Positions 1 through 14,376 of a stretch of 14,376 nucleotides of DNA are shown piece by piece. How positions within the stretch are numbered: the first letter of the stretch is position 1; every line of letters starts with the position of its first letter. A program made the translations under genes and the position numbers. The notes under the pieces were generated by a model that saw only the letters and a program-made list of their open reading frames with translations, did not search any database and was not told the origin of the DNA. Location: contig JBBCAV010000106.1 of NCBI GenBank assembly GCA_051382305.1, positions 1 to 14,376 of the forward strand, in the 5' to 3' direction. The DNA is from Bdellovibrionota bacterium FG-2. Lineage in GTDB: Bacteria > Bdellovibrionota > UBA1018.

Positions 1-75
1 GAAGCTCAGATTAAAGTTCTGATTCTAAATAGAATGAGCTGCATCGGTATGCCCAAGTCACATCCCGCGACATAA
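1..75 (+). CDS. IS5-family (IS903 group) transposase, last 24 aa (partial, runs off window start)
   Basis: Manual translation EAQIKVLILNRMSCIGMPKSHPAT, stop TAA at 73-75, followed by the terminal IR. Not in the ORF track. Confidence 0.85.
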   Translation, partial: EAQIKVLILNRMSCIGMPKSHPAT

Positions 76-109
76 CCGTCCCGCGCCCATCCCCCCGTTT
101 TGTCAGGGG

Positions 110-127
110 GAATTACGCAACAACGCC
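110..127. repeat. Terminal inverted repeat (IRR) of IS903-group element
   Basis: gaattacgcaacaacgcc. The element ends in ...AACAACGCC, i.e. 5'-GGC on the other strand, as in the IS903 group. The predicted 9-bp target duplication copy is AAAAGAAAC (128-136). Confidence 0.8.
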
Positions 128-188
128 AAAAGAAACTAGTGTATTTCCCACGCTTCAACTATCGGAAATTCGGAAGCGTCCCTTGAGA

Positions 189-740
189 TTAGTAGTGCGT
201 CAATAAAGTGACTGCTTGCCCGCAGATTAACCCCAGTATAACTCCGCCGAGGAGGTCGCTAGGAAAGTGAACGCCTAAATAGAATCTAGAAAAGCTCACG
301 AGCAGGGCCCAGACACCCACGACGGGTGCGATTGGGTGATGTGCGCTGGCCAAGGCGCAGAAAAAGGCTACTGAGGAGCTCGCGTGGGAGGATGGGAACG
401 AGCTATCGCTGGGCAACTGAACTTGGGCAGCATAATTTGTTATTTTTTGAGAGGGGCGTTTCCGCGCAATGATTCTCTTTATAATAGCTCCAGTGGCCCA
501 GGCGATGAATGCCGCAAGCATCGATCGTAAAAAGATCTCCTGCTGTCCAATAAAAATAATGCCCTTTCGGTCAAGAAGGATAAGAGGAGTGGAGATGAGA
601 AACCATGCTTTGCCTGTCCCTGAGTAGGTTATGGCCTTCAGTGCGAAAGTGATCGGAGTTCTTCTCCACTTTACGATAGTCCTCATGCTTGATTCGTCGA
701 AAGCTTCGATTCGTTTTAGTAGAGTTTGAACTTTAATCAT
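189..740 (-). CDS. PAP2-family membrane phosphatase (undecaprenyl-PP / phospholipid phosphatase-like)
   Basis: PAP2 motifs C1 IKRIIARKRP, C2 SFPSSH (PSGH variant) and C3 SRFYLGVHFPSD; several hydrophobic segments; starts 14 nt after the NtrC-like gene stop. Confidence 0.92.
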   Translation of the reverse strand: MIKVQTLLKRIEAFDESSMRTIVKWRRTPITFALKAITYSGTGKAWFLISTPLILLDRKGIIFIGQQEIFLRSMLAAFIAWATGAIIKRIIARKRPSQKITNYAAQVQLPSDSSFPSSHASSSVAFFCALASAHHPIAPVVGVWALLVSFSRFYLGVHFPSDLLGGVILGLICGQAVTLLTHY

Positions 741-754
741 TTATTCATTCGCCG

Positions 755-2245
755 CTAAATATACTCCCTCGCGGTGATCCCATACTTTTGCAACTTTCGA
801 AGCAAAGTCTTCTTCGGGATATTCGCGTGCAGCGCGGTCTGATTGATTCGACCCTTAAATGCGCGAAGAGCGCTCATTAAGAACTGTTTCTCGAACTCCT
901 CCTTATTTGCTTGGAAATCTAGACGATTGATATCAAGAGTAAATCCCACGGGATCGATCTTGGGTAATACTCCACCTTCAGCGCCAACAGCCACGGCCAT
1001 CTGTGCATCATCAAGATCAATCTCGTCAGAATCCTCATCGAGGTCTTTGAAACTTGTCTTCAGGCCTGGTCGTCGAGACCCACCGGTCAGCGAGTCGGGT
1101 AAGCTATCGACTGTCAAACGCTCCGTGGTCTCAATCACAAACGCATGTTCAATGACGTTCTCAAGTTCTCGAATGTTGCCAGGCCAAGCGTGGGCCTTAA
1201 GTAGGTCCATTGATTCGGGACTGAGGTCAACAATCTTCTTATTGTACTGTTGGTTAAACTTCTCGATGAAGTAATTGGCCAAGACTTCGACGTCATTGCG
1301 TCGTTCGCGAAGAGGGGGGAGTTGAATTGGCAATACGTTGAGGCGATAAAATAGGTCTTCGCGGAACTCGCCCTTTTTGATCATTTCTTCAAGGTTCCGG
1401 TTTGTGGCGGCCACAATACGTACGTTGACCTCGACTTCACGATTTGAGCCCACGGGTGTGAACTTCTTATCTTGCAGAACGCGCAACAGCTTGACCTGCA
1501 TACCCGGTGTGATGTCGCCGATTTCGTCTAGGAACAGGGTTCCGCCATCGGCATACTGAAACTTGCCAATCTTGCGCGAATCAGCGCCGGTGAAGGCGCC
1601 TTTTTCGTGACCGAAAAACTCGCTTTCAATTAGGTTCTCAGGAATCGCAGAACAGTTTACCGTGACAAAACGATTGTCTTTTCTTGGACTGTTAAAATGG
1701 AGGGCTTGAGCGACGAGCTCTTTTCCGGTTCCGCTTTCGCCGCGGATTAGAACGGCCGTTTCAACGCGCGCCAGCTTGTCAATGACGCTAAACACACGTT
1801 TCATTTCAGAGCTCTGTCCGACGAAATCCGTTCCATTGGGGAGCTTAATGTTCGGCGCGGATAAGGAGAGGCTCTTGACCATGTGCTTGGCCTTGAGTGC
1901 TTTTTCAAGCAGGTAGACCAAGTTCTCAGCTTTAATCGGTTTTTCAAGGTAGTTGTAAGCCCCTTCGCGGGTGGCCTCGATCGCGTCACGGATGTTTGAA
2001 AATGCCGTGAGGATAATCACAACCACCGAGGGGTCGTGGGCTTTGATTTCCTTGAGCGCTTCTAAGCCGCTAAGGCGAGGCATGTTCACATCCAGAAGAA
2101 CCAGATCATAATGTCCGGCTCGAACTCGATTGACACCTTCTTCGCCGTCTCTTGCCTGATCGACGTGAAAGTGATTCTCCGACAACGCGGAGGCCACGGA
2201 CATTCTCAAATCGGCATCATCATCAACAACGAGTACTCTAAACAT
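755..2245 (-). CDS. Sigma54-dependent response regulator (REC-AAA+-Fis HTH, NtrC/AtoC family)
   Basis: REC (VLVVDDD, LLDVNMP, YLEKP), Walker A GESGTGKE, intact GAFTGA, Walker B LFLDEIG, FREDLFYRLNV, WPGNIRELEN and a C-terminal HTH INQTALHANIPKKTLLRKL. Start moved to ATG 2245, which has a GAGGAG SD and an 8-nt overlap with the kinase gene end. Confidence 0.96.
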   Translation of the reverse strand: MFRVLVVDDDADLRMSVASALSENHFHVDQARDGEEGVNRVRAGHYDLVLLDVNMPRLSGLEALKEIKAHDPSVVVIILTAFSNIRDAIEATREGAYNYLEKPIKAENLVYLLEKALKAKHMVKSLSLSAPNIKLPNGTDFVGQSSEMKRVFSVIDKLARVETAVLIRGESGTGKELVAQALHFNSPRKDNRFVTVNCSAIPENLIESEFFGHEKGAFTGADSRKIGKFQYADGGTLFLDEIGDITPGMQVKLLRVLQDKKFTPVGSNREVEVNVRIVAATNRNLEEMIKKGEFREDLFYRLNVLPIQLPPLRERRNDVEVLANYFIEKFNQQYNKKIVDLSPESMDLLKAHAWPGNIRELENVIEHAFVIETTERLTVDSLPDSLTGGSRRPGLKTSFKDLDEDSDEIDLDDAQMAVAVGAEGGVLPKIDPVGFTLDINRLDFQANKEEFEKQFLMSALRAFKGRINQTALHANIPKKTLLRKLQKYGITAREYI

Positions 2246-4214
2246 ACTTCTGCTCCTCACTATTTTCGCCACTATTATGGGCCGTATCAATTGCCCGGGT
2301 CAATCCTGTTCCGACTGAATTATTTTCAATCGGAAGAAGAATTTTGAATGTGCTTCCAGAACCGAGTTCACTCAGAACCTCGACACGCCCGTTGTGGGCT
2401 TCCACAAAATATTTGGTAAGGTAAAGGCCAAGTCCGGTTCCGTTGACCCGGGCGGTCGCGTCGTTCTTGGCGCGATAAAATCGTGTAAAAAGGCTGTCGC
2501 GCTCGGTTTCTGTGAGGCCTTCACCCTGGTCTTGGACAGAGATTTCAACCCAGGCGTTATCAGCCGTTTCTTTGGATGAAACGAAGACGACAGACCCTTG
2601 GGGGGAGTATTTCATCGCATTATCAATGAGGTTATTGAGAACCTTCGAAATCAAAGTCGGATCAAGCTTAATCGGAAACAGGGGCTCGAGTTCTGATTGG
2701 ATCTTGATTCCCTTGGCTCGCGCCGGAGCCTTGAACCCTTCGAGGCATCGCTCAATGAGTTGATTGACGTCTTTGGATTCCAGTTGAATCCGGAGGAGTT
2801 TTGATTCCACTTTGTTGAGTTCCAATATGCTGGAGATAAAGCGATTGAGTTCTTCGCTTGAGCTAATGATGTGGCGAATGGTTTCTTGGTCGCGCTCAAT
2901 GAGGCGTGACGAAGCTTTGGCCATGAGCACTTCGGCCAGTCCTTGAATGCGTGCGACCGGGGTCTTTAAATCATGGGTCACGAGGGAGAGGAAGTTGGTC
3001 TTGAGTTCTTCAACTTGAACGAGAACTTCGTTCTTCTGCTGGAAATCCCAGCGTTGCTTGTATTCTTGAATGAGGCGATAGGGAACAGCAAGGTAGTAGG
3101 CGATGAAGACCCCGATGAGGGGCTGACTTTCTCGGATCCATATCCCTTGGGTATCGAGAAGGATTTGGCCAAACAGGAGAACGATCCCTGCCAGGATGAG
3201 CGACGAAAACACTCCGTAGAGCGGCGTCATTGTGAGTACCGCCCAGAGAACAAAACTGGTTACGCCAAGGGTAGTGAGCCAATTGACCGATGCTGGCGCA
3301 CGGACGATAGATTCTTGGTGCATCAGCGAGTCCAGGATATTGGCGTGGACAAGGATTTTTGGATTTCTAAATTGGACCTTGGAGTAGGGCGTTGATGCGA
3401 AGTCTGAGGAGTCATCCTTGAAAAGTGTTCCGACGAGGAGAATCTTGCCGCGCAACGAACCTACTGGAACTTTCCCATTGAGAATGTCGCTAAAAGATAT
3501 TCTGAGATACGGACTTTGAGTTTCTGTGGCACCGAGGGCGGTTGAGCCATGGTAACGGAAAAAGAAATAGCGGCTTTCTGCTTCAGGGACTTCGTAGCTA
3601 CCCGGGGCTTGGTATCCGTGAGGCACAAAGTTTAATCGCTCCGCAAGATCTAGATGAAAGGTAGGGCGGCCGTTGAGCGTAGTTAGGGCTCGACGAGTGA
3701 CTTTATCTTCGGCAAACACATTACCGTCTTTATGAAGGACGGCCACGGAGTGGGGGATGGAATTGAGAGGAAACGGCGGCGCAGTGAGATCATAAGGGGT
3801 TCCGAGTAGGACAACGCTTCCGCGGCTCTCAAGTCGCCGGGTCGCCTTGACAAAACGTGTGCCCCACTCCTTTCGGAGCAAATCGGGATTGGATTGATGA
3901 ACGAGGTTGAGGTTCACGAGGTATCCCACCGCTTTGGGTTCGTGAGCTTCAAGCGCTTCCATGAATCGAGTGTGAATATCTAGGGGAAGCGGTGCTGTCT
4001 CGTCGAGCTCGCTGGTTGTCTTATCATCGATGCTTATCAGGATGATGGAAGCGTCGGCTGCTTTTTGTGAGCCCTTTGAAATCCTAAAATCAAAAAGACT
4101 GGCTTCAAACAAATTGAAGTCCAAGTTCACAAGCACAGCGGTGAGGGCGAGCGCACCGGCGCAGATGAGGAGGGGTTTTTCAAATTTCTGAAGTAGCTTT
4201 TCCATTTGTAACAT
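2238..4214 (-). CDS. CHASE2-domain sensor histidine kinase
   Basis: N-terminal TM; CHASE2-like segments (ILISIDD, GKILLVG, VHANILDSL) followed by about 3 TMs; H-box THDLKTP, N-box NNLIDNAMKYS, DQGEG, FTRFYR, GTGLGL. Start is ATG 4214 or 4205; the track's TTG 4262 lies inside the sigma54 promoter. Confidence 0.92.
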   Translation of the reverse strand: MLQMEKLLQKFEKPLLICAGALALTAVLVNLDFNLFEASLFDFRISKGSQKAADASIILISIDDKTTSELDETAPLPLDIHTRFMEALEAHEPKAVGYLVNLNLVHQSNPDLLRKEWGTRFVKATRRLESRGSVVLLGTPYDLTAPPFPLNSIPHSVAVLHKDGNVFAEDKVTRRALTTLNGRPTFHLDLAERLNFVPHGYQAPGSYEVPEAESRYFFFRYHGSTALGATETQSPYLRISFSDILNGKVPVGSLRGKILLVGTLFKDDSSDFASTPYSKVQFRNPKILVHANILDSLMHQESIVRAPASVNWLTTLGVTSFVLWAVLTMTPLYGVFSSLILAGIVLLFGQILLDTQGIWIRESQPLIGVFIAYYLAVPYRLIQEYKQRWDFQQKNEVLVQVEELKTNFLSLVTHDLKTPVARIQGLAEVLMAKASSRLIERDQETIRHIISSSEELNRFISSILELNKVESKLLRIQLESKDVNQLIERCLEGFKAPARAKGIKIQSELEPLFPIKLDPTLISKVLNNLIDNAMKYSPQGSVVFVSSKETADNAWVEISVQDQGEGLTETERDSLFTRFYRAKNDATARVNGTGLGLYLTKYFVEAHNGRVEVLSELGSGSTFKILLPIENNSVGTGLTRAIDTAHNSGENSEEQKYV

Positions 4215-4245
4215 TCTTGTGCTCACTTCCACTACACTGGGTAAG

Positions 4246-4262
4246 AGCAATCGACGTACCAA
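4246..4262 (-). promoter_or_regulatory. Sigma54 (-24/-12) promoter of the CHASE2-HK/NtrC/PAP2 operon
   Basis: Minus strand TTGGTACGTCGATTGCT against consensus YTGGCACGNNNNTTGCW, with exact GG-N10-GC spacing. Predicted TSS ~4235, 21-30 nt before the start codon. Confidence 0.8.
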
Positions 4263-4296
4263 GTGGTGGCCTTTTGTCCCTGCTTTGATAAGTTTG

Positions 4297-4309
4297 TAAC
4301 CATTTGAAA
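4297..4309 (-). promoter_or_regulatory. Putative IHF binding site
   Basis: Minus strand TTTCAAATGGTTA has one mismatch to WATCAANNNNTTR, and lies between the sigma54 promoter and the putative enhancers. Confidence 0.5.
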
Positions 4310-4376
4310 TTGTGGGCCTAAATGTCGTGACTGTGGGCGGTGGATCATGGGTTGGAGGTGTGGTGTGTCCGCTAAG

Positions 4377-4393
4377 TGTCTAATCTTTTGACA
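4377..4393. promoter_or_regulatory. Putative sigma54 enhancer (UAS), TGTC-N9-GACA palindrome
   Basis: TGTCTAATCTTTTGACA (TGT-N11-ACA type), about 150 nt upstream of the predicted TSS. A degenerate second copy TGTCGTGACTGTGGGCG lies at 4323-4339. Confidence 0.55.
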
Positions 4394-4415
4394 ATCGAAT
4401 ACGAGGCAATCGTAA

Positions 4416-4468
4416 TTAATAAACTTTAATTTCGCTTTCATAAGACTCTAATCCCGGTCGCTTAGAGT
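4416..4468 (+). promoter_or_regulatory. Putative OmpR-family-activated promoter, copy 1 (upstream of micro-ORF and response regulator)
   Basis: TTAAT(4416), TTAAT(4426), TTCAT(4437), CTAAT(4448), then 10 nt, then -10 TAGAGT (4463-4468). Same geometry as 6619-6671. Confidence 0.6.
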
Positions 4469-4470
4469 CT
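4443..4470. repeat. Perfect 9-bp inverted repeat with 10-nt spacer
   Basis: AGACTCTAA (4443-4451) / TTAGAGTCT (4462-4470); an alternative pairing is CATAAGA (4439-4445) / TCTTATG (4472-4478). Confidence 0.75.
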
Positions 4471-4475
4471 CTCTT

Positions 4476-4538
4476 ATGGACACCTTGTATCCCGCTGTTG
4501 TGTGGCTAGCTCTTCTCGCGCTGATTCAAAGACTGTGA
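4476..4538 (+). CDS. Putative leaderless 20-aa hydrophobic micro-protein MDTLYPAVVWLALLALIQRL
   Basis: ATG lies 7 nt after the predicted -10 with no SD. The peptide has a continuous hydrophobic core (AVVWLALLALI) and ends in tandem stops TGA-TAG, 20 nt before the regulator ATG. Confidence 0.45.
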   Translation: MDTLYPAVVWLALLALIQRL

Positions 4539-4558
4539 TAGCGTGAGGGACAAAAGCT

Positions 4559-5230
4559 ATGAGACTTCTCGTTGTTGAAGATCAAAAGAAAATGTTGGGC
4601 TTTCTGAAAAAAGGCCTTACCGAGGCGGGCTACTCCGTGGATGCGGCTGATACTGGCGCGACCGCCGAGGCTTTGGCCGCCGAAAACACGTATGACCTCA
4701 TTGTCCTTGACGTGATGCTTCCGGATCAAAGTGGGTTAGATACCTCTCGGCATATGCGCCGTGATGGCTTTTCCGGCGCCATTCTCATGCTCACGGCATT
4801 GGCCGGGACTAAAGATAAAGTACAGGGTTTGGACGCGGGAGCGGATGACTACTTGACGAAGCCGTTTGCCTTTGAGGAACTCTTGGCCCGGGTGCGTGCG
4901 CTTTTGAGGCGGGGGACCCCTTCTGGGCAGCCTGTTTTGCGATTTTCGGATTTGGAGGTGGATCTTGTCACGCGCAAGGTCTGTCGTTTGGGGAAGGAGA
5001 TCCTGCTCACGGCAAAGGAATTTGCGCTTTTGGAGTTTTTCTTGCGGAATCCCAATCGGCCGCTTTCGCGTACTGAGATCAGTGAACACGTCTGGGACGT
5101 GCATTTTGATAGCGATAGTAATGTGATTGATGTGTACATTAATATGCTGCGAAAGAAAGTCGATCAACCGTTCAAGAAAAAGTTGATTCATACGATGGTT
5201 GGCGTGGGCTATGTCCTCAGGCAAGAGTAG
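4559..5230 (+). CDS. OmpR/PhoB-family DNA-binding response regulator (CusR/CzcR-like)
   Basis: MRLLVVED, VLDVMLP, GADDYLTKPF, winged helix LTAKEFALLE...SNVIDVYINMLRKKVD...IHTMVGVGY; SD GAGGGA at 4545-4550. Confidence 0.96.
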   Translation: MRLLVVEDQKKMLGFLKKGLTEAGYSVDAADTGATAEALAAENTYDLIVLDVMLPDQSGLDTSRHMRRDGFSGAILMLTALAGTKDKVQGLDAGADDYLTKPFAFEELLARVRALLRRGTPSGQPVLRFSDLEVDLVTRKVCRLGKEILLTAKEFALLEFFLRNPNRPLSRTEISEHVWDVHFDSDSNVIDVYINMLRKKVDQPFKKKLIHTMVGVGYVLRQE

Positions 5231-6632
5231 AGGGCTGCAGTTTCGTTTAACCGTGCTTTTTGTTGCCATTTTTGGAGTATTGCTTGTCCTATTTTGCACA
5301 CTTCTTTATGTGGAGTTTTCCCGGACCCAGCAGGCAGAGTTTGATGCCGCTCTCTTTAATCACGCCGTCGATATGTCTCAGACCATTGAGGTAGATTTTT
5401 TTGGCCGGCTTTCGATCCACTCGGATCAACTGGCGGAGGAGGGAAAAGTTTTTCCGTTCGCCCTAGGAAAAGCTTATCTCCAAATCAGCGATCAAAATGG
5501 CGAAATCCTAATGCGTTCGAGTAGCCTTGGGAGTCGCCAATTGCCTTTTTCCAAAGAGGATCAGGCGCTTTTGTTTGGGCAAAGAGTCACCTTTAAGACG
5601 TTTGAGCCGGGGGATCGATTGCCGTCTTACCGTTTGATTTCTTATTTGGTGGAGCGGCAGCCCGGCGTGCGTTTGATTTTGCAGATTGGCGTACCCTTAA
5701 ATCTTTTGGATCGCCAGAAAAGAGGGCTACTCGCATTCTTTCTAATCACGATTCCCTTGATCCTGGTTTTGGCAATCTTTGGTGGACTGCTCTTTTCAAG
5801 GCGGGCTTTGGATCCGGTCCGAGCTATTATTGAAAAGGCAAAAGAGATGAGCCCCTCGCAGCTGTCAGAGCGAGTTCCTGTTCCGGTTGAAAAAGACGAA
5901 TTACGGGAACTCGCACTTACGTTGAACCATCTTTTGGACCGCCTTCAGCAGTCCTTCGAGAGTCAGGAACGTTTCATTGCTGACGCCTCTCATCAGCTCA
6001 AGACCCCTCTTGCGATTTTGAGGGGCGAACTTGATGTCCTCAAAAGGCGCCCCAGGACAGTGGAGGAGACGAGTGGCTTTCTTGTGAGTGCTTCGCAAGA
6101 GGTCGAGTATCTTTCAAAGATGGTTGAAGATTTGCTCGTTTTGGCGCGTGTAGATGCGGGTTTCGGCACGCTTTCAATCAAGAAGGTTCGTGTGGACGAA
6201 CTGGCTCTTGAAGCGGTGTCACGCCTTGAGCGATTTGCGCAAACTAGGAAGGTGAAAATTCGGTTTAATTTAGGGGGCTCTGGTTCTTTTGAGATTTTAG
6301 GGGATTCAGATCTTCTGCAAGTGATGCTTCGAAATCTTCTAGAGAATGCAATTAAGTTTTCCCCAGAAGACAGTTGTGTCGAGGTCGAAGTGAACGATGA
6401 GCCTGCGTTTGTTTCCGTGAGAGTAAGTGATCGCGGGCCGGGGATTCCGCTCGAGGCAAGAGAGCGCATTTTTAGTCGATTTTTTAGGGCTGAAAATACG
6501 CGCAATTCAGTCGCTGGCGTAGGTCTCGGACTTCCTATTGCGAAGCGAATTATTGAAATTCATCAAGGAACAATTGAAGTGAGCGACGCTCATCCAGGCG
6601 CTTCATTTACTGTGAAGATTAAAAAGAATTAA
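5211..6632 (+). CDS. HAMP-domain sensor histidine kinase (CusS/QseC-like architecture)
   Basis: Two TMs flanking a periplasmic domain, HAMP (PVRAI...DELRELALTLNHLLDRL), H-box FIADASHQLKTPL, NLLENAIKFS, DRGPGI, GVGLGL. ATG 5211 overlaps the regulator's 3' end. Confidence 0.95.
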   Translation: MSSGKSRGLQFRLTVLFVAIFGVLLVLFCTLLYVEFSRTQQAEFDAALFNHAVDMSQTIEVDFFGRLSIHSDQLAEEGKVFPFALGKAYLQISDQNGEILMRSSSLGSRQLPFSKEDQALLFGQRVTFKTFEPGDRLPSYRLISYLVERQPGVRLILQIGVPLNLLDRQKRGLLAFFLITIPLILVLAIFGGLLFSRRALDPVRAIIEKAKEMSPSQLSERVPVPVEKDELRELALTLNHLLDRLQQSFESQERFIADASHQLKTPLAILRGELDVLKRRPRTVEETSGFLVSASQEVEYLSKMVEDLLVLARVDAGFGTLSIKKVRVDELALEAVSRLERFAQTRKVKIRFNLGGSGSFEILGDSDLLQVMLRNLLENAIKFSPEDSCVEVEVNDEPAFVSVRVSDRGPGIPLEARERIFSRFFRAENTRNSVAGVGLGLPIAKRIIEIHQGTIEVSDAHPGASFTVKIKKN

Positions 6633-6671
6633 TTTCCTATTAATGCCTCTTTAACGGCCCTTCGTTATTGT
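6619..6671 (+). promoter_or_regulatory. Putative OmpR-family-activated promoter, copy 2 (drives sRNA)
   Basis: TTAAA(6619), TTAAT(6629), TTAAT(6640), TTAAC(6651), then 10 nt, then -10 TATTGT (6666-6671). The boxes occupy the -35 region, and 11-bp TTAA direct repeats resemble PmrA/QseB-type sites. Confidence 0.65.
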
Positions 6672-6678
6672 TCTAACT

Positions 6679-6778
6679 GTGTTGAGGCAAAACATTCTTA
6701 GCACAACCCACCCATAGCAGGCAGGTGGTGGAACCCAACCCCCTCCGGGTCGCCACCTGCCGCATTTCTCGCCCTGCT
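6679..6778 (+). ncRNA. Putative structured small RNA with C-rich anti-SD loop
   Basis: Hairpin 1 is GUGUUGAGG (6679-6687) / UCUUAGCAC (6696-6704). Hairpin 2 is GGCAGGUGGUG (6720-6730) / CGCCACCUGCC (6751-6761), with inner ACCC/GGGU and loop AACCCCCUCC (6737-6746). All four non-Watson-Crick stem pairs are G-U wobbles on the + strand only. Confidence 0.65.
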
Positions 6779-6785
6779 TGTCTTC

Positions 6786-9125
6786 TTATTTCTCCGTGCC
6801 GCGAATGACCTTTTCTGAAATCACATCTGAAGCCGGACTGTCTGACGTCGCGAGCTTTCCACTTTTTCGATCAAGCTTCACATCAACGAGATCCGGATTC
6901 TGAGGAAATCCTTCGGGAGGCTGGCGTAGGAGCGCCGTGTTCATGAAATTGACCCAGATGGGAAGTGCGGACGTGGCTCCGGTGAGGAGGAGTTTGGTTT
7001 TCTTTTTACCTTTTTCCTGAAGTTCCTCCAGGTGGGGGGCCTCGTCCAGACCGACCCATACCACGGTGGTAAGTTGAGGAGAATAGCCTGCGAACCAGCT
7101 ATCGCGATGGTGACTCGTGGTACCCGTTTTCCCGGCCGCAGCGTTCTTATAGCCCAAATCACGAGCTGTCCGTGCTGTTCCTTCAGTGAAGACGGATTCA
7201 AGCATATCCGTCATGAGGTCCGCTTCAGTTGACTCCAATATTTTCTTAGGATGAAAAACAAAACGTGCGTAACCCGTTCCATCGTCTTGGGTGATTCCAC
7301 GAATCACGGTGAGTTCTTCTTGAAGACCGTGGTTCGCAAGGGTCCCATAGATGCGAAGCAGTTCAATAGGGGAGAGCTCCGCGACCCCCAGGGAGAGGGA
7401 GGGCACGGCGGGGAGATCGGATTCCACCCCCAAGCCTTTTGCAAGTTGAATTATCTCGGAGAGACCGACTTCGTAACCAAGCTTAGCCGTTACCGTGTTT
7501 ACGGAGTGGGCGAGCGCAGTGCGCAGGGAGGTCCAGCCCAGGAATTCTTTTTCGTAGTTTTTCGGGGACCAGTTCTGTTTTCCGTTATCATATTCAATCG
7601 TCCAGGGGGCATCTTCCATGGGGTAGCCGGGGGTGTAGGGAACGCCATGGACATCCGTTCTCTTTTTGATTGCGGCTAGGAATACGAGGGGTTTGAAAGT
7701 GGAGCCCACCTGGCGTTTCATGTTGAGGATGCGATTGAAAGTGGAAGCCGCGTAGTTGCGGCCCCCGACGAGCGCCCGGATGAATCCGTTGTGGTGATCC
7801 ACGCTAGCGAGTGCCCCCTCGAGTTTGAGCCCGGGGGGGAGTTTGAGAGCTTTGTCCAAATGAGCGACGCCGTCGGCGACCGCTTTTTGCGCGGCCGCAT
7901 TGAGGGGCACGTCGAGCGTCGTGTAAACGTGAAACCCAGCTTGCGGAATTTCTTGTTCGCTAACCCGATCTTTGAGAAGGCGGATGAGTTCAGCTTTTGC
8001 GTAGTCAGTAAAATAAGGCGCTTTGTTGGAGGCTGTCTGTGCCGGCGCCAGGCGTATGGGCATTTTCAGGGCTTCTTTGGCTTCTCCTTCTGCGAGTTGC
8101 CCGGTTTCGACCATTTTCTTTAGGACAAGTTTTTGTCTGTCTATCGCGCGTGCGCGATGAGTGTACGGCGAATAAAAGCCCGGACCCCGAATGAATCCCG
8201 CCATCAGTGCGACTTCAGCGAGGTTGAGTTCCTCGAGCCTTTTGCCAAAAAAGTGCTTGGCTCCTTCGGAGACGCCATGGATTTCGAGGTTTCCGACTTG
8301 CCCGAGATAAACTTCATTGAGATAGCGTTCAAGAATCTGCTCTTTTTCAAAGCGGAGTTCCAAGAGAATGGCGAGAAACACTTCGTTTATTTTTTTAAAG
8401 AAATTTTTTCCCCGTCTGGCGGTTAGATTTTTTACCAGCTGCTGCGTAATCGTACTTCCGCCTTGTGCCAGAGAGCGGGTTTTAATATTCACCCACACGG
8501 CGCGAAGAATTCCGCGAGGGTCGAATCCCTTGTGTTCTAGGAAGTGTTGATCTTCAATTGCGATAATGGCGGTTTTGACGTGATTTGGAATTTCATCGAA
8601 TTTGATAACGTCGCGCACCTCATTTTGATCTGATTTCTGTTCGCCCGCTTGAGAGGGACGAGATAATGTCGCGACCAATTCGGGTTCAAGGTAGAGGTCA
8701 GGGGTTGCTCGGCCCCCAACTTCGATGGATTGGAGCGGAGCGTCCGCAGCGGGTGTTTCAAATTTAAGAATTGTTTTCTTGCCGTACGCGTCAATGGTGG
8801 GGTGGTTTTCTGGAATGAGGTAGATGGGATAATTGACTTGATGCATCTCGAAACTTATCGATTCTGGCGCAAGTTTGGCTTCGTAGCCCCGGTTTTTGAG
8901 CTGTTCCAGGATGAATCCTCGTCGCTGAGGTTGGCTAATTCGTAGGATATCTGAGTAGATTCGCGTCGGAATGAATTGACTCTGTTGCACGAAGCTTCGG
9001 CCTAATTGTACGTAGAGAAAACCCAGGTAAACCCCAAAAAGGGCGGTGCCTATCAACGCCAGGAGGGCGAGGGGTTTCCAGAGTTTTTTGTTCCGAGAGC
9101 TTCTTTTTTTTATGGTTTTTCGCAT
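6786..9125 (-). CDS. mrcB: Class A penicillin-binding protein (PBP1B-like transglycosylase/transpeptidase)
   Basis: Basic N-tail plus TM, an intervening domain at the UB2H position, GT51 motifs AIEDQHF, GGSTITQQLVKN and ILERYLNEVYLG, transpeptidase SxxK (STFK), SxN (SVN) and KTGT. Start uncertain (ATG 9125 or TTG 9134/9140); mrcB is assigned from architecture. Confidence 0.9.
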   Translation of the reverse strand: MRKTIKKRSSRNKKLWKPLALLALIGTALFGVYLGFLYVQLGRSFVQQSQFIPTRIYSDILRISQPQRRGFILEQLKNRGYEAKLAPESISFEMHQVNYPIYLIPENHPTIDAYGKKTILKFETPAADAPLQSIEVGGRATPDLYLEPELVATLSRPSQAGEQKSDQNEVRDVIKFDEIPNHVKTAIIAIEDQHFLEHKGFDPRGILRAVWVNIKTRSLAQGGSTITQQLVKNLTARRGKNFFKKINEVFLAILLELRFEKEQILERYLNEVYLGQVGNLEIHGVSEGAKHFFGKRLEELNLAEVALMAGFIRGPGFYSPYTHRARAIDRQKLVLKKMVETGQLAEGEAKEALKMPIRLAPAQTASNKAPYFTDYAKAELIRLLKDRVSEQEIPQAGFHVYTTLDVPLNAAAQKAVADGVAHLDKALKLPPGLKLEGALASVDHHNGFIRALVGGRNYAASTFNRILNMKRQVGSTFKPLVFLAAIKKRTDVHGVPYTPGYPMEDAPWTIEYDNGKQNWSPKNYEKEFLGWTSLRTALAHSVNTVTAKLGYEVGLSEIIQLAKGLGVESDLPAVPSLSLGVAELSPIELLRIYGTLANHGLQEELTVIRGITQDDGTGYARFVFHPKKILESTEADLMTDMLESVFTEGTARTARDLGYKNAAAGKTGTTSHHRDSWFAGYSPQLTTVVWVGLDEAPHLEELQEKGKKKTKLLLTGATSALPIWVNFMNTALLRQPPEGFPQNPDLVDVKLDRKSGKLATSDSPASDVISEKVIRGTEK

Positions 9126-9163
9126 GGGGGTCAAAATCAAACTTCCTGTTTTATTTAATCTCC

Positions 9164-9192
9164 TTGACGGGACTCTATCTGGTCAATAGAAA
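9164..9192 (+). promoter_or_regulatory. Putative sigma70 promoter of the beta-barrel gene, overlapping a TTGAC-N13-GTCAA palindrome
   Basis: TTGACG (9164-9169), 17 nt, TAGAAA (9187-9192); GTCAA at 9182-9186. Confidence 0.4.
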
Positions 9193-9234
9193 ACTGGATA
9201 GGCCTTAGGTTCTGAATAGCTATAGGAGACTTGC

Positions 9235-10782
9235 TTGAATAAAATTCGTGTTGTGTCGGTAGGGTTGAAAGCCGGAGTTATGGGGTTGATGTTGGGGGCC
9301 AGCGTCCAGTCGTCTGCGATGGAGCTGGATTGGTCGGGTCAGTTTCGATCCGAACTGAATATCGTCCACAACTACGCGCTTGATAATACACCCGACGGTG
9401 AAGTGTATGATCCCGCTCGCGCGCTAGGAAACGGCTACTATGTCCCGAGTGGTGGCCAGCGCACGGCACATTTTCAGACTCTCTTCATGAAGCTTCGCCC
9501 GAAGCTCGTTGTGAATGACAACGTCTATATCAAATCTGAGTGGTGGGTGGGGGATCCCGTATACGGAATTTTTGGGAATGGCGTTCCGTATTCGACTGAT
9601 CAGCGTCGTTGGAATTCTACGTTTAATCGTGGAGCGCCTATTACAGCCCAGCGCTTTTGGGGCGAGTTCTTAAGTGAGTTTGGAACGGTTCAAGTGGGGC
9701 GTGCTCCTTTGAATTGGGGCTTGGGAGTGGTTTGGAATTCCGGTGACGGGTTGTGGGATCGGTATTCTTCAACCGGAGATACGATCAGGTTGATCTCCAA
9801 ATTTGGGGCGTTTACGTTTATTCCGAGTTTTGTTTCTTATTCGGCTGGAAACACTATTGGCGGCGCGTGCTCGGTTGTGGGCGGCGTGTGTGTTCGTCCT
9901 CAAAGTGTCACCGAGCAGGGAATCAGTGGCGTGTCCGAGTATACGCTCGCTTTTCGTTACGAGAATCCGGATGAGGACTTTGATGGCGGTGTGAATTTGG
10001 TAAGACGAATTGCGGGTACGGAGCAGGATCGAAGCAACGGCCTTGCGGGTCCGGAAAATACTGCTGGAGCGATGCATTTTAATACTTGGGATATTTACGG
10101 AAAAAAGCGGCTGGGTAAATTCACACTCTCTGGGGAGTTTCCGATTACGAGTGGAAATCTTAATGGGCCTGAGTATTCGACTTTTGCAGTGTTGGGTGAG
10201 CTTAATTGGAAAATGTCGGATTCTTGGGAAAGTTATGTAAAAGTGGGGCATGCACCTGGGCAACCGAATGGGGATTCTACGGACCTGACTCAGTTCAAGG
10301 CCTTCTATTTTCATCCCAATATTCGACCTGCGATGATTATGTTTAATTATCAGTTGGCAAATTTTGCGGGAATCAATACTCAAAATAGTGCTGCAGTGGG
10401 TGCTGCAAACTTGGCTTCTCCTTATGATAACCCGATCGTGAATGCGAACTTCATTAGTGTGGGGGGGGCGGCGCATGTTGATAAATGGGGTTTCAAGTTG
10501 AATTGGACTTATGCCAAGGCGCTTGAAACCGCAGTCACGGGCAAGTATTTCTATAATACGCGCTTAAGGCAGATGGTGGGTCCCGCGATAAAAGATCAGG
10601 AAAGTTCCTTGGGTTGGGAAACGGATTATACAACTTCGTTTCAGTGGGATGAGGCGTTTCAGTTTAACTGGGATTTTGGCCTTTTCGTGCCGGGTGGGTA
10701 TCACAAGTTCTCAAATACCGGGACGGACAACGCCACCTCGTTGGTGTATGCGACGAGCTTTCGGTTAGGGGTTTCGTTTTAG
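9235..10782 (+). CDS. Outer-membrane beta-barrel (porin-like) protein of unknown substrate
   Basis: SD AGGAG (9224-9228) 6 nt before TTG; signal peptide ending SSA/MELDWSG; many alternating amphipathic aromatic strands; C-terminal beta-signal RLGVSF. Confidence 0.85.
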   Translation: MNKIRVVSVGLKAGVMGLMLGASVQSSAMELDWSGQFRSELNIVHNYALDNTPDGEVYDPARALGNGYYVPSGGQRTAHFQTLFMKLRPKLVVNDNVYIKSEWWVGDPVYGIFGNGVPYSTDQRRWNSTFNRGAPITAQRFWGEFLSEFGTVQVGRAPLNWGLGVVWNSGDGLWDRYSSTGDTIRLISKFGAFTFIPSFVSYSAGNTIGGACSVVGGVCVRPQSVTEQGISGVSEYTLAFRYENPDEDFDGGVNLVRRIAGTEQDRSNGLAGPENTAGAMHFNTWDIYGKKRLGKFTLSGEFPITSGNLNGPEYSTFAVLGELNWKMSDSWESYVKVGHAPGQPNGDSTDLTQFKAFYFHPNIRPAMIMFNYQLANFAGINTQNSAAVGAANLASPYDNPIVNANFISVGGAAHVDKWGFKLNWTYAKALETAVTGKYFYNTRLRQMVGPAIKDQESSLGWETDYTTSFQWDEAFQFNWDFGLFVPGGYHKFSNTGTDNATSLVYATSFRLGVSF

Positions 10783-10788
10783 AGACGC

Positions 10789-11382
10789 TTATTGAATTTG
10801 GAACTCCGTAAAAAACACATTCGTGATGAGATCTTCTTCGCCCATACCGGATTGGCTTCCCACGACCTCATTGAGCATGTCGACAAGCTGACTCCGAAGG
10901 AGATAGCGGCCCTGCACGGAGGTCAGTTCATGCATCTCCTTGCGGCCAAGCATTGAGAGAAACCGATCGGTAATCACGGGAGTTAGGGCTTCAATGCGCT
11001 CTTTGCGTGAAGCCTCCCGGATTTCCATTCCGAAACCGATCGTGGCATAATGGATTTTCCCTTGAAGTTGGGAATCGGTTCCGTCAGCGCCTTTAATTGG
11101 ATTGGGTTTTGAAGCGATGTTAAGTGTGAGGGGTTTGAAAATAACCATCCCCCCTTCATTCTTTTGATCTTTGTCTGAATATTTCTTTTCGAGTCGATCG
11201 CGCTCGGTGGGTTCCGTGATCGCAGGACGTTTGTAGAGAATGCGCGTGAAGTAGGTGGAGCCTGCTCCTATTATAACAATTACCATGTTGACAATGACGG
11301 CTAAAAGAACAAGTTTTGCCGCTTTTGCTTCGGGTGAAACGGGCGCCTCTTCTGCCGCTTCTTTTTTTTCTTCTTTAGCCAT
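10789..11382 (-). CDS. fliL: Flagellar basal body-associated FliL family protein
   Basis: Charged N-tail MAKEEKKE, one TM, LTLNIA, PVITDRFLSML, LTSVQGRYLLRSQL and the hallmark C-terminus ITNVFFTEFQIQ. Start moved to ATG 11382. Confidence 0.85.
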   Translation of the reverse strand: MAKEEKKEAAEEAPVSPEAKAAKLVLLAVIVNMVIVIIGAGSTYFTRILYKRPAITEPTERDRLEKKYSDKDQKNEGGMVIFKPLTLNIASKPNPIKGADGTDSQLQGKIHYATIGFGMEIREASRKERIEALTPVITDRFLSMLGRKEMHELTSVQGRYLLRSQLVDMLNEVVGSQSGMGEEDLITNVFFTEFQIQ

Positions 11383-11389
11383 TAGATCT

Positions 11390-11418
11390 ATTTTAGCAGA
11401 GGTTGCAAGAACAGTGAA
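11390..11418 (-). promoter_or_regulatory. Sigma70 promoter giving a probably leaderless fliL mRNA
   Basis: Minus strand TTCACT, 17 nt, TAAAAT with an extended TGn; the -10 is followed by 7 nt and then ATG, with no SD. Confidence 0.6.
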
Positions 11419-11477
11419 ATGACAATTAGTTGGCGCTTTGGTGCCATGCTGTGTATATTTTGGATTCGAAGACAAAT

Positions 11478-12347
11478 ATGCGTTATCTCGAACCTGTTTT
11501 TCGTCCACCCAGCGAAGCTGACAGCTTAATTTTGCAAATCACCTACGGGTGTACCCACAATAAGTGCACGTTCTGCGCGATGTATCGCGAGAAGAAGTTC
11601 AAGGTTCGTCCCGTTGAGGAGGTCTTGGAGGACATTCAAGAGGCGTCGCGACGGTATCCTGACACGCGAAGAGTTTTCTTAGCCGATGGCGACGCCATGG
11701 TATTAAAGACTTCGAAGCTTCTCCAAATACTCGAGAAGCTCGAGCTGGCCTTTCCTGCACTTGAACGTGTGGGGATTTATGCAGATTCTAGGGGGATTTT
11801 ACAAAAAACCGGAGACGAGCTGCAGGCGCTTCGCGAACATAAACTGGCAATGGTCTATCTGGGTTTAGAGTCTGGCAGCAATGAAGTGCTGCGGAAGCTC
11901 GATAAAGGCGCTACCGCAAGCGAGATGACTTTGGCCATACAGCGAGCTAAACAGGCGGGGATTCAAACGAGTGTGATCGCACTCTTGGGTGCGGGAGGGC
12001 GGGCTCTGTCTTCGCTCCACGCGCAGGAAACCGCGAGGGTTGTGAGCGAAATGTCTCCTGATTTTTTCAGCGCGCTGACGTTGACTCTCGTGCCAGGGAC
12101 CCCTCTTGCAGCGGAAGTAGAACGAGGCGAGTTTGAGCCCCTTTCGCCGCAGGAGTTGCTTGCGGAGTTGGGGCAGATTCTGGCGCAGATTTCTCCAACG
12201 AGTTCGATTGTTTTTCGGACGAACCACGCGTCAAACTATGTTCCTCTACGGGGTTGTTTACCTGACGATAAAGAAGAGATTCTTAGTACCCTCCAGTGGG
12301 CAATCGAAAATCATGCGCTTCGGCCAGAGTGGATGCGGGGCCTTTAG
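11478..12347 (+). CDS. Radical SAM protein of unknown function
   Basis: MRYLEPVFRPPSEADSLILQITYGCTHNKCTFC Fe-S motif, FLADGDA, YLGLESG and FRTNHASNY, as in a widespread uncharacterised radical SAM family. Start moved to ATG 11478. Confidence 0.92.
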   Translation: MRYLEPVFRPPSEADSLILQITYGCTHNKCTFCAMYREKKFKVRPVEEVLEDIQEASRRYPDTRRVFLADGDAMVLKTSKLLQILEKLELAFPALERVGIYADSRGILQKTGDELQALREHKLAMVYLGLESGSNEVLRKLDKGATASEMTLAIQRAKQAGIQTSVIALLGAGGRALSSLHAQETARVVSEMSPDFFSALTLTLVPGTPLAAEVERGEFEPLSPQELLAELGQILAQISPTSSIVFRTNHASNYVPLRGCLPDDKEEILSTLQWAIENHALRPEWMRGL

Positions 12348-13705
12348 GGCGCAGGTTTCGTCGGGGGAGTTTCTTCGGGTTCATCGACTGTGATTTTGGC
12401 GAGCACCTTCTTGAAGTTCCCCATGTTGTATTTGCTTTTGTACTGCTCGACGAAATCGCGAAAGCCTTCGTTAGGGTGCCGATTAAAGACGTATTGAACG
12501 AGTTCGTGCGCGACGATAAAGAGGGTAGACAGCGGCGAGATCTGCGATGCGGTAAGCCCTTTTGGAAAGCCCGTTCCGTCGGGGCGCTCATGATGTTGTA
12601 CGATGATCGTATCAACGTCGGCGGGAATTTCGGTGAATTTTTGCACAATCGCCGCTGCCTTGAGAGGATGCTCCTTAAATGCGTGGATCTCCTCGATCGT
12701 AAATTCAGTTTGCCGCCGCTCGAGCTCAAGCAAATCATGGACGGCTGCAAGAGTGTTGTTTCGAAGCATAATGTCATGAAAAATTGCAGCAAGCGAAAGC
12801 TTTTGGAAGGTCGTTTCCGAAGGCCAATCCATCCGGCTTGCCAGTGCACAAGCGACATTGGCAACTACGATGCTATGAGAGCTGATGTAGTTCCCTTTTG
12901 CGGTCACGAACGCCATGAGGATCTTAGAAAGCTGAGGATTTTGTCCTACGGCTTTGACCGCGAGTTTGACGTTTTCTTTTGCAACGGCTTCTATTTCTTT
13001 AGTGAAACCCAGCTTTGTACTGAGTTCTAGAATTGCATCTTGGGTGGAGATCGCCAGTTCGCGCGCAATTTCAGGCGTCGTGGCTTCATTTGCAGCGATG
13101 GCAGCGACGCTGCTCTGGAATTGCGAAACTAGCGCTTCATATTCTCCCCTGTGCACATACAGGTATTCTATGCCCTTCTTAATGACAAACCGATCAAGGT
13201 CTACGAGGTCAAAGGTGTCGCCGGGTTGAAATATTTTAACAAACTTGAGCTTTGAAAGGCGAATATATACGGCGCATTTGAGCGGATTTGCTTTGACGAG
13301 CAAATTGGTTCTAATGCGGCAATAATCTGCTTCATCCAAGCTCGGGGTTAGGTCTCCCACCTTGAGAGCATTTTCGATCGCTTTGTTGACAAATTCGCGG
13401 GGTTGATCCGCGTTTGCGTACCCAATGATGCGAAGGTCTGGAAACAAGGGCTTGAGGGGTGCTCCGCTTTTAGTAAACACTATGATTGGTAAGAGGGATC
13501 CTACAGAAACAAGGTACTTGAAGAGACGGGTGCTCTCTTTTTGATCATCGCAAATGATGAGATCGAGTTCATTATCGTCCAGAAGAAATTCAATGGCGGT
13601 CTGAAACGTCGCAGCTCGGTGCACGCTTGCGCGAAAAGTGACTTCAATGCTGGTGGCAAGGCTTGCCGTTGCCGGTGTGTCGTCTTGGATGAGTAGGATG
13701 TTCAC
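12344..13705 (-). CDS. REC-like domain plus HD-GYP domain protein (degenerate c-di-GMP phosphodiesterase-like)
   Basis: N-terminal NILLIQDD...DLIICDD...IIVFT; C-terminal SHS, FHDI, HP and QHHERPDGTGFPKGL. Start moved to GTG 13705. Overlaps the radical SAM stop by 4 nt (convergent). Confidence 0.88.
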   Translation of the reverse strand: MNILLIQDDTPATASLATSIEVTFRASVHRAATFQTAIEFLLDDNELDLIICDDQKESTRLFKYLVSVGSLLPIIVFTKSGAPLKPLFPDLRIIGYANADQPREFVNKAIENALKVGDLTPSLDEADYCRIRTNLLVKANPLKCAVYIRLSKLKFVKIFQPGDTFDLVDLDRFVIKKGIEYLYVHRGEYEALVSQFQSSVAAIAANEATTPEIARELAISTQDAILELSTKLGFTKEIEAVAKENVKLAVKAVGQNPQLSKILMAFVTAKGNYISSHSIVVANVACALASRMDWPSETTFQKLSLAAIFHDIMLRNNTLAAVHDLLELERRQTEFTIEEIHAFKEHPLKAAAIVQKFTEIPADVDTIIVQHHERPDGTGFPKGLTASQISPLSTLFIVAHELVQYVFNRHPNEGFRDFVEQYKSKYNMGNFKKVLAKITVDEPEETPPTKPAP

Positions 13706-13711
13706 TCTATG

Positions 13712-13739
13712 AGTATAACGAAGGCCACGAAAACAGCAA
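13712..13739 (-). promoter_or_regulatory. Putative promoter giving a leaderless HD-GYP mRNA
   Basis: Minus strand TTGCTG, 16 nt, TATACT, then 6 nt, then GTG at the first REC strand; no SD. Confidence 0.5.
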
Positions 13740-13830
13740 AAGAAAATGCCGCGCACCGCAAGGTGAGTGTGTCATGGAATTGGCGCTATTAATCACTGAA
13801 GTATGGGGCGATCTTGGTCGATAAGTTTTC

Positions 13831-14265
13831 GTGAAAGTGTATTTCTTGTGGCGATCAATTATTGGGACATTTTTGGCTGGCGCAGCTTACTCCGCAGAGG
13901 TTTGTCCGCCTGGGAGCACCGCGAGCCCGGAAGCTTCAGGCGCCACCCTTCTTTCGCCCGTCGTTTCGCGGTTGAAATATTTTGATCCCTCCCCTGTGAA
14001 TCTCTTTGATGGGCAGTTCTTTTATGATTACCGAAAGAACGCGGACTCCGTGATTTTGACGGCCACTTCTTCGAGCGATCTGTCGGTAAAGGACGGCGTC
14101 CGATATGAAAAGGTTTACGAACTCTTTGGTGCGGGTTTTACTCCCGTTACCCCCAAATTTCACCCCGGTCTCCCGCCTTTTCCGAATGCAGCCAACTTTG
14201 ATTCCTATATGACTCTTTTGAAGTCCAAGGCTGGAACGCTTTCTTCAGATGAAAAGTATCTGTAA
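13831..14265 (+). pseudogene. Secreted hypothetical protein truncated by IS66 insertion
   Basis: Signal-peptide-like N-terminus (MKVYFLWRSIIGTFLAGAAYSA). Its TAA stop (14263-14265) is part of the IS terminal GTAA starting at 14262. Confidence 0.7.
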
Positions 14266-14376
14266 TTGGCCAGCCGTCTAGGACATGAAGTCGGGTAATT
14301 TTCCTGCGAACAGCGTCCGCAGCGCATCCATGGGATGCACTCCATTTTTTCTGCAGGTGGAGAGATAGCTTCGAAT
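14262..14376 (-). mobile_element. Right end of an IS66-family insertion sequence (ISBst12-group-like)
   Basis: Minus strand 14376-14278 encodes IRSYLSTCRKNGVHPMDALRTLFAGKLPDFMS*, an IS66-type transposase C-terminus. It is followed 16 nt later by the end ...GGCTGGCCAATTAC, i.e. the 5'-GTAA terminus typical of IS66. Confidence 0.88.
14278..14376 (-). CDS. IS66-family transposase, last 32 aa (partial, runs off window end)
   Basis: Manual translation IRSYLSTCRKNG...LFAGKLPDFMS, stop TAG at 14280-14278. Not in the ORF track. Confidence 0.85.
   Translation of the reverse strand: MRSYLSTCRKNGVHPMDALRTLFAGKLPDFMS

Follow-up and report, generated by a model that had tools for sequence, protein, structure and literature searches.

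Among described promoters, those activated by PhoB and PmrA come closest to the ones considered here: hexamer direct repeats with a period of 11 base pairs (bp) abut the −10 element and replace the −35 element, and the distance from the pho box to the −10 element is 10 bp. The small RNAs MicL and DapZ have their own promoter inside the 3′ end of an upstream gene. The half-sites of PmrA are the hexamers CTTAAT and xTTAAT, 5 bp apart, according to an excerpt of PMC3973317. Excerpts of two further sources (PMC2789325; 10.1101/438515) describe MgrB as a regulon member of 47 amino acids (aa) that inhibits the kinase PhoQ, and in mprAB-pepD of Mycobacterium an HtrA-type protease gene lies directly downstream of a regulator-kinase pair by which it is directly regulated (an excerpt of PMC3062566). 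These systems are the points of comparison for an OmpR-type two-component system of Bdellovibrionota bacterium FG-2, whose genes lie in a DNA stretch of 14,376 nucleotides (nt) (GenBank assembly GCA_051382305.1, contig JBBCAV010000106.1, positions 1 to 14,376 of the forward strand), hereafter called the window, and are bracketed by two copies of a predicted four-box promoter.

The sequence comparisons reported below make it likely that this is an autoregulated OmpR/PhoB-family system with twin operators, a leaderless peptide, a redistributed cargo and an orphaned second operator (copy 2). The features on which this reading turns, including a micro-open reading frame (micro-ORF), are as follows.

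Positions 4414-4452, plus strand: predicted operator of copy 1, with half-sites at 4416-4420, 4426-4430, 4437-4441 and 4448-4452; matrix score 32.5 bits
Positions 4463-4468, plus strand: −10 hexamer of copy 1, of the TAnnnT type, 7 nt before the ATG at 4476
Positions 4476-4538, plus strand: micro-ORF of 20 aa (coordinates include the stop codon), a single hydrophobic helix with a YPxxVW motif
Positions 4559-5230, plus strand: response regulator of the OmpR/PhoB type, with the Pfam domains Response_reg and Trans_reg_C
Positions 5199-6632, plus strand: sensor histidine kinase with two transmembrane segments, a periplasmic domain, HAMP, HisKA and HATPase (Pfam)
Positions 6617-6655, plus strand: predicted operator of copy 2, with half-sites at 6619-6623, 6629-6633, 6640-6644 and 6651-6655; matrix score 39.6 bits
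Positions 6666-6671, plus strand: −10 hexamer of copy 2, 7 nt before the GTG at 6679

The reading frames of regulator and kinase overlap, and their products have the make-up of an OmpR/PhoB two-component pair: the regulator combines a receiver with a winged-helix Trans_reg_C domain (Pfam E = 1.7e-27 and 7.5e-26, respectively), and the adjoining kinase carries the HAMP-HisKA-HATPase series. Regulator residues D8, D51, T79 and K101 are unchanged in 14 orthologs, the phospho-acceptor aspartate is present, and the pairing of regulator and kinase is retained across orthologous loci. The OmpR-type two-component system named in an initial annotation of this DNA is thus borne out by the Pfam domains, the invariant regulator residues and the adjoining kinase.

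Both promoter copies have the same geometry. The direct repeats are spaced by 10, 11 and 11 nt, the last half-site lies 10 nt from the −10 hexamer, and 7 nt separate this hexamer from a start codon. Twin promoters with identical spacing had been proposed at these positions; the coordinates and spacings agree with that proposal, and the two copies are identical at 33 of 63 positions in an ungapped alignment. What the earlier inspection overlooked is that boxes 1 and 2 of copy 2 lie within the last kinase codons, with the kinase stop codon (6630-6632) forming part of box 2. The phased direct repeats appear to replace the −35 element at a fixed distance from the −10 hexamer, which is the layout of PhoB-type (class II) promoters, and the half-site TTTAAT resembles the CTTAAT of PmrA. 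Unlike the PhoB and PmrA promoters, however, each copy has four half-sites rather than two, the best family matches of the regulator are CusR/HprR-like, and the operator is a predicted one.

A weight matrix of 58 nt (43.7 bits) was built from 13 kinase-end sites of other genera, with the genus of FG-2 excluded, and was run over both strands of the 4.34-Mb genome, about 8.7 million positions. The initial annotation had put forward its four-box plus −10 model for the genome at large, and this independent matrix gives its highest score to copy 2 (39.6 bits) and its second highest to copy 1 (32.5 bits). Next come two further sites, on contigs C115 (third, 21.3 bits) and C93 (fourth, 20.2 bits), and the best remaining position reaches 15.1 bits.

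The pattern of divergence from a sister species, which is 79% identical across the syntenic 10 kb, points in the same direction. In copy 2, boxes 3 and 4 and the −10 hexamer show 0 changes in 18 positions, against 10 in 30 for the surrounding spacers, a difference for which our own hypergeometric arithmetic gives a probability of about 0.005. Beyond the kinase stop codon, copy 2 has changed in its spacers only, and copy 1 shows the same pattern. The copy 1 position of the sister species scores 36.8 bits and has the same −10 hexamer, and the gap to the ATG there is 6 nt.

The element is found well beyond these two species. A kinase ortholog is present in 41 of the 116 genomes of the order, and 34 loci were examined, 21 of which have a kinase-end site above 17 bits (13 of the 21 are the training sites). 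In most of the 34 loci an array of the form ATTAA / TTTAAT / TTTAAT / TTTAA-like lies at the kinase stop codon, with TAnnnT about 10 nt on, and the sites of other genera share the geometry of copies 1 and 2. At three loci (L013, L117 and L123) the whole array lies 14-46 nt past the stop codon, which indicates that it is conserved as DNA, beyond what the C-terminal codons of the kinase alone would require. The initial annotation had made its proposal depend on boxes, micro-ORF and RNA being conserved beside orthologous pairs; the boxes and the micro-ORF are conserved order-wide, and the RNA element is confined to one genus. By parsimony, copy 2 would be the ancestral, order-wide output promoter located at the kinase stop-codon region.

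These data bear on the simplest alternative, that the two copies, being AT-rich DNA, resemble each other by chance and bind no regulator. Raw similarity gives this view some footing, because the best ungapped 63-mer between the two intergenic regions reached at least 33 matches in 28 of 1,000 dinucleotide shuffles, a marginal result. Moreover, a strict three-box pattern was no commoner in the 116 genomes of the order than its reversed control (27 versus 25 matches), so that short versions of this AT-rich motif are without specificity by themselves; the scan, which allowed only TTCAT or TTTAT as box 3 and missed copy 2 itself, is uninformative. Chance would not, however, place the two copies first and second in a scan with an independent matrix, keep the position of the element across the order, confine the changes between species to spacers or set the same element ahead of a linked gene in all eight of its closest homologs (see below). 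A coincidence was already disfavoured and is, in our estimate, very improbable, and the evidence supports the view that the four phased boxes behave as a genuine operator tied to the regulator-kinase pair.

Several observations adjoin this picture. Where the operator overlaps the stop codon (for example, L003, L005, L007, L014 and L111-L125), the kinase ends in (R)IKK-x-stop, and where the operator is displaced the C terminus differs; the binding site thus appears to dictate the last codons of the kinase. At L009, on the reverse strand in another genus, an operator of 23.6 bits lies roughly 150 nt past the kinase stop, and no ORF behind it exceeds 4 aa; it is followed by arms with long-range complementarity and by a terminator-like hairpin, which may represent a second, unrelated non-coding output. 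The fourth-ranked site of FG-2 (C93:5072-5129, equivalent to L132:1573-1630) has a weak −10 hexamer and is followed after 6 nt by a 33-aa ORF, and the contig ends 300 nt later. An 88-aa ORF behind an upstream four-box site (L111:540-803) contains a run of X where bases are masked or withheld. Ahead of copy 1, the 50 nt at 4364-4413 are nearly unchanged in the sister species and contain the words CTAAG and CTAAT. The same stretch holds TTGACA at 4388-4393, 17 nt before CGTAAT, a possible basal promoter for the operon or for the divergent gene of a CHASE2 histidine kinase, for which a consensus scan makes no call. When genome contigs were searched with the regulator alignment, paralogs (best 58% identity) filled the results and no orthologs emerged, and metagenome scans with the kinase protein and with a 22-nt word from the hairpin behind copy 2 gave no matches. 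A search of sequencing runs for the locus listed no RNA run and a single DNA run, probably that of the source sample.

Copy 1 is followed by a micro-ORF rather than directly by the regulator gene. Its predicted product consists of a YPxxVW motif and a single hydrophobic helix (maximum 15-residue hydropathy of 2.19). No Shine-Dalgarno sequence precedes the micro-ORF, and because its ATG lies 7 nt after the −10 hexamer (6 nt in the sister species), transcription is expected to start at or next to the start codon, giving a leaderless mRNA. The 8 nucleotide differences from the sister species comprise 5 synonymous and 3 conservative changes. In other genera, too, this promoter is followed by homologous leaderless ORFs; all 14 aligned sequences share the tryptophan, and the window peptide corresponds to the conserved core. 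Across 42 distinct operator sites, 21 have an ATG 5-7 nt after the −10 hexamer, as do 4.1% of random positions. The motif [YF][PSYLK]xx[IVL]W followed by a hydrophobic stretch, which was defined after the data had been seen, occurs in 13 of the 42 resulting ORFs and in 22 of 3,041 background ORFs. Thus, the micro-ORF is most likely a conserved membrane-peptide gene that is translated without a leader.

The regulator gene begins 20 nt past the micro-ORF stop and is preceded by the Shine-Dalgarno-like sequence GAGGGA. No hairpin or terminator was found in these 20 nt, so a transcript from copy 1 should extend through both the regulator and the kinase gene, and autoregulation is implied. Attenuation by way of the micro-ORF was also considered and was dropped on account of the missing terminator. 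The combination of operator and leaderless peptide ahead of regulator and kinase recurs in another genus (L126, L130 and L150-L152). Together, the copy 1 layout and the conservation of the peptide support the proposal of the initial annotation that the regulator activates its own operon, headed by a 20-aa membrane peptide.

The resemblance to PhoQ/PhoP-MgrB lies in a small, single-pass membrane protein that would be encoded in the regulon of its own regulator, with expression deduced here from the promoter. In contrast to MgrB, the peptide has only 20 aa, and its gene, predicted to be leaderless, opens the regulator-kinase operon in this genus; any effect on the kinase is conjecture. A complex prediction for two copies of kinase residues 1-230 with the 48-aa peptide of locus L010 returned a score of 0.00 without controls and gives no answer either way.

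The cargo genes of this regulon are best seen in other genomes. Elsewhere, the regulator and kinase genes are most commonly followed by the operator at the kinase stop codon, then by the leaderless ORF of the peptide and finally by a gene of about 110 aa (L003, L007, L113, L114, L116 and L120), and at L124 the cassette of peptide and ~110-aa gene lies upstream of the regulator. By tblastn, a gene of the ~110-aa family, which is HPF-like, lies next to the regulator-kinase pair in 12 of the 34 loci, and L006 was recognized as a thirteenth such locus from the ORF listing and alignment. In FG-2 the sole member of the family is on contig C115, directly behind the third-ranked operator, and the sister species has the same arrangement. 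This linkage holds in a phylum-wide sample of 301 genomes, where 8 of the 8 closest HPF-like homologs have an upstream operator, all of them in genomes with a kinase ortholog, and 0 of 19 more distant homologs do. The initial annotation had noted that no metal efflux or other effector gene adjoins the pair; this is true of the window, and the predicted regulon continues elsewhere, with the HPF-like gene on C115 and the fourth site on C93.

The assignment of this family is made at the level of fold. The C115 protein (116 aa) matches Pfam Ribosomal_S30AE with E = 6.6e-4 and 20.8 bits, below the gathering cutoff of 23.7, and among 13 other members tested, 2 match the same family at E < 0.01, both below the cutoff. 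An AlphaFold2 model computed from 14 sequences has a predicted local distance difference test (pLDDT) score of 87.9 and a beta-alpha-beta-beta-beta-alpha fold. In a Foldseek search of the PDB, ranks 1-38 among the matches listed are all HPF, YfiA or RaiA chains (best 4hei_A, E = 2e-6, TMt 0.85), and the first match of another kind stands at rank 39. The modelled structure thus gives the C115 protein the fold of HPF/RaiA/YfiA, although sequence identity is 7-21%, the Pfam score is below the cutoff in each matching member, and this subfamily is tied to a two-component operator.

Traces of the same cassette may survive on C115. An 11-aa leaderless ORF (C115:38391-38426, equivalent to L131:2392-2427) lies behind the promoter of the HPF-like gene and overlaps the start of that gene, and the sister species has a 16-aa counterpart; the ORF looks like a decayed YPxxxW peptide gene. 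Copy 1 is closer to the HPF-like promoter (38-41 of 55 positions) than to copy 2 (31-35 of 55), which fits a scenario in which one cassette was split, though it is not strong evidence for it.

Other loci carry a different output. All 4 of the downstream proteins of about 400 aa that were tested are trypsin-PDZ (HtrA-type) proteases, and at L005, L111 and L125 such a protease gene lies directly downstream of the regulator-kinase pair. Small secreted proteins also occur behind the operator. The best HtrA homolog of FG-2 itself, on contig C128, has no matrix site of at least 14 bits in a box-only scan. The cargo at orthologous loci is thus the peptide, the HPF-like gene or HtrA, and we infer that the regulon serves an envelope or protein-stress response.

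L005, L111 and L125 share the HtrA-downstream layout with MprAB-PepD. In contrast to MprAB-PepD, no HtrA gene lies beside the system in the window, the operator lies within the last codons of the kinase, and the commonest cargo is a leaderless peptide with an HPF-fold protein. The initial annotation had not recognized the module as one that was already described. In one respect this needs qualifying, as twin promoters around a two-component operon are comparable to those of mprAB-pepD in the excerpt of PMC3062566; in another it stands, since a narrow full-text literature search returned no description of the module, which is weak evidence of its absence from print.

The protein families nearest to this pair are those of CusRS, HprRS and CopRS. 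The best NCBIfam match of the regulator is cztR_silR_copR (TIGR01387), at 248.2 bits against a cutoff of 279.2, and the kinase scores 243.8 bits with cztS_silS_copS (TIGR01386), against a cutoff of 292.55. Among solved chains, the kinase comes nearest to the cytoplasmic part of HprS. For its residues 1-187, in which the periplasmic sensor part lies, no match to a solved chain was obtained, and a single match (9m08_C) begins before residue 206. The window also departs from the CusRS type in its direct-repeat operator, and no metal efflux or oxidase gene adjoins the pair among the Pfam-scanned neighbours in the window. Because both scores are below their cutoffs, the sensor part matches no solved chain and no metal genes are nearby, we make no metal classification; as judged from its sequence, the system belongs to the CusRS/HprRS neighbourhood and is not demonstrably a metal system.

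The region after copy 2 carries no such cargo in FG-2, and two further features are needed to describe it.

Positions 6679-6772, plus strand: putative short non-coding transcript, with a decamer at 6679-6688, a variable stretch, a C-rich stretch at 6701-6716, a hairpin at 6717-6763 and a weak U-tract
Positions 6786-9140, minus strand: convergent gene of a class A penicillin-binding protein (PBP1A), with the Pfam domains Transgly and Transpeptidase

The predicted plus-strand fold of 6679-6772 (−39.4 kcal/mol, z = −3.23) has a stem on its 5′ side and a large hairpin on its 3′ side, joined by a C-rich linker that is single-stranded, and the minus strand of the same region folds less well (z = −1.27). 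The hairpin is built on the inverted repeat 6720-6728 / 6753-6761, within whose loop the motif CCCCCTCC lies, and in the putative transcript the loop bears CCCCCUCC. Comparison with the sister species shows that the first 10 nt are kept, that the 16-nt C-rich stretch is identical and that the 42-nt hairpin core (6720-6761) has a single change, by which the CCUCC of the loop becomes CCUAC. A 13-nt insertion or deletion lies between decamer and C-rich stretch, and past the hairpin conservation decays. Overall, 57 of 61 positions (93%) are identical at 6701-6761, compared with about 76% in flanking coding DNA. The ORF that starts at GTG 6679 encodes 12 aa in FG-2 and 45 aa in the sister species, and after the first few residues the two products show no relationship. 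Because neither strand has a conserved ORF, the idea that 6679-6772 is coding was rejected, and the possibility that the hairpin is a repeated (REP-like) element was rejected because it is present in a single copy in the genome. A constrained promoter is thus followed by a constrained RNA-like unit, and the chances that copy 2 makes a functional short RNA appear roughly even. Like MicL and DapZ, such an RNA would have a promoter that overlaps the upstream coding end, and it would end at the downstream hairpin; unlike them, it lacks a canonical terminator and is conserved in one genus only.

The initial annotation had gone further and proposed that the local output of the system is a small RNA that acts in trans, pairing with Shine-Dalgarno sequences through its C-rich loop, CCCCCUCC. 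The constraint on the copy 2 promoter, the plus-strand unit of decamer, C-rich stretch and hairpin, the better folding of the plus strand and the lack of a conserved ORF are all as expected for a small RNA. The proposed seed, however, is not conserved, as the CCUCC of the loop reads CCUAC in the sister species. Searches for the element are likewise unfavourable: a covariance model of the RNA core matches only 2 of 75 family genomes, both of them (from this genus) sources of the model, and Rfam gives 0 matches at E ≤ 1 across the whole window. The element is also single copy, its U-tract is weak, and the same promoter drives protein genes in all other genera. An RNA that targets Shine-Dalgarno sequences is therefore not borne out and seems to us unlikely.

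The same genus-specific element suits an explanation in which copy 2 is an orphaned relic, whose boxes are retained because the first two are kinase codons and because the time for decay has been too short, and the hairpin is a shared terminator of the kinase operon and the PBP1A gene, so that any transcript is functionless. The peptide and HPF-like genes do sit elsewhere in this genus, the short ORF behind copy 2 is not conserved, and the hairpin lies between convergent genes, 22 nt from the PBP1A stop codon. Yet boxes 3 and 4 and the −10 hexamer, which show no changes where a third of the spacer positions have changed, are outside the coding sequence. In addition, a terminator alone needs neither a conserved loop nor a conserved 16-nt stretch upstream of the hairpin, both of which fall in the segment with 57 of 61 identities. 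A functionless relic is possible, and we find it doubtful.

The PBP1A gene is convergent in the sister species too, and given the 22 nt between its stop codon and the hairpin in FG-2, transcripts that read through from copy 2 would run antisense to the 3′ end of this gene. Copy 2 might therefore drive regulator-dependent antisense transcription that couples envelope stress to expression of this cell-wall synthase. In favour of this, the convergent layout is common to both species, the hairpin is without a canonical U-tract, which makes read-through plausible, and the regulon elsewhere includes envelope proteins such as HtrA. This idea draws on layout alone, however, a strong hairpin is expected to stop most transcripts, and the spacer between hairpin and PBP1A stop, 22 nt here, is about 100 nt in the sister species. 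We regard an antisense function as improbable, even more so than the Shine-Dalgarno-directed RNA.

The reading that we prefer, in which twin operators serve an autoregulated system and the second of them has lost its cargo, can be set out as follows. The regulator would recognize four TTTAAT-like direct repeats in 11-bp phase, and this array, which ends 10 bp ahead of the TAnnnT hexamer and replaces the −35 element, suggests PhoB-style activation by two regulator dimers. The copy 1 transcript probably begins at or next to the ATG at 4476 and would yield the leaderless 20-aa peptide and then regulator and kinase, an arrangement of positive autoregulation in which the peptide may act on the kinase as MgrB does on PhoQ. 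Copy 2 would be the ancestral output promoter, which elsewhere drives either the gene of an HtrA protease or the peptide gene together with that of the divergent HPF-fold protein. Within this genus, the ancestral kinase-end cassette may have been split, such that the peptide gene was placed ahead of the regulator and the HPF-like gene was relocated to C115, where a separate four-box promoter and what is left of a peptide ORF accompany it. Copy 2 would then have been left without a protein gene and still be under selection, giving at most a non-coding RNA of ~85-95 nt that ends at the genus-specific hairpin.

A number of points weigh against this account, beyond the marginal shuffling result, the uninformative three-box scan and the peptide motif chosen after the fact. 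That the regulator binds, where transcription starts, that the peptide is translated and that the RNA exists are deduced from sequence, and the ancestral state comes from parsimony over 34 loci without a rooted tree. The HPF-like family is a fold-level assignment at 7-21% sequence identity, with all Pfam scores below the cutoff. An intrinsic-terminator consensus scan calls the hairpin on neither strand, there being 4 U in the 9 nt after the stem, and the genus is sampled by 2 genomes, which puts both hairpin and promoter beyond covariation testing.

The remaining genes of the window bear less directly on the system. Pfam-scanned neighbours include the CHASE2 kinase, a sigma-54 regulator, PBP1A and FliL, among others. 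A second signalling pair occupies the minus strand at 755-4262, divergent from the operon studied here, and its members are the CHASE2 histidine kinase (2238-4262) and, at 755-2290, a response regulator of the sigma-54-dependent type; downstream lies a PAP2 phosphatase gene (189-740). The intergenic region at 9141-9234, between the PBP1A gene and a divergent gene of 515 aa with a weak TIGR04551 match, is identical to the sister species at 88 of 94 positions, far above coding DNA, which suggests a dense regulatory region.

The initial annotation was thus right about the operator, the autoregulated operon and the micro-protein and incomplete on the regulon, and its small RNA is unproven. The general understanding of two-component systems is not overturned by this locus. 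What makes it notable, as judged from the comparisons above, is that the operator also serves as the last kinase codons, that a leaderless micro-protein accompanies the system order-wide and that the output has the HPF fold. A bolder version, which we offer only tentatively, holds that regulator, kinase, leaderless YPxxxW micro-protein, an operator in the final kinase codons and an HPF-fold output form an undescribed order-wide module, and that the orphaned operator has here been recruited for a new, genus-specific small RNA; if true, this would be the birth of a small RNA caught in the act, from a stranded two-component promoter. More generally, the analysis gives a clean regulon prediction for an uncharacterized two-component system in a poorly studied, mostly uncultured order, and, with the conserved leaderless micro-protein, it lengthens a short list of peptides that are candidates for association with kinases. 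It also links a divergent protein with a ribosome-hibernation fold to an envelope-type sensor and describes a promoter whose first half doubles as C-terminal codons of a kinase. If the orphaned promoter makes a functional RNA, the locus would document how a small-RNA gene can arise.

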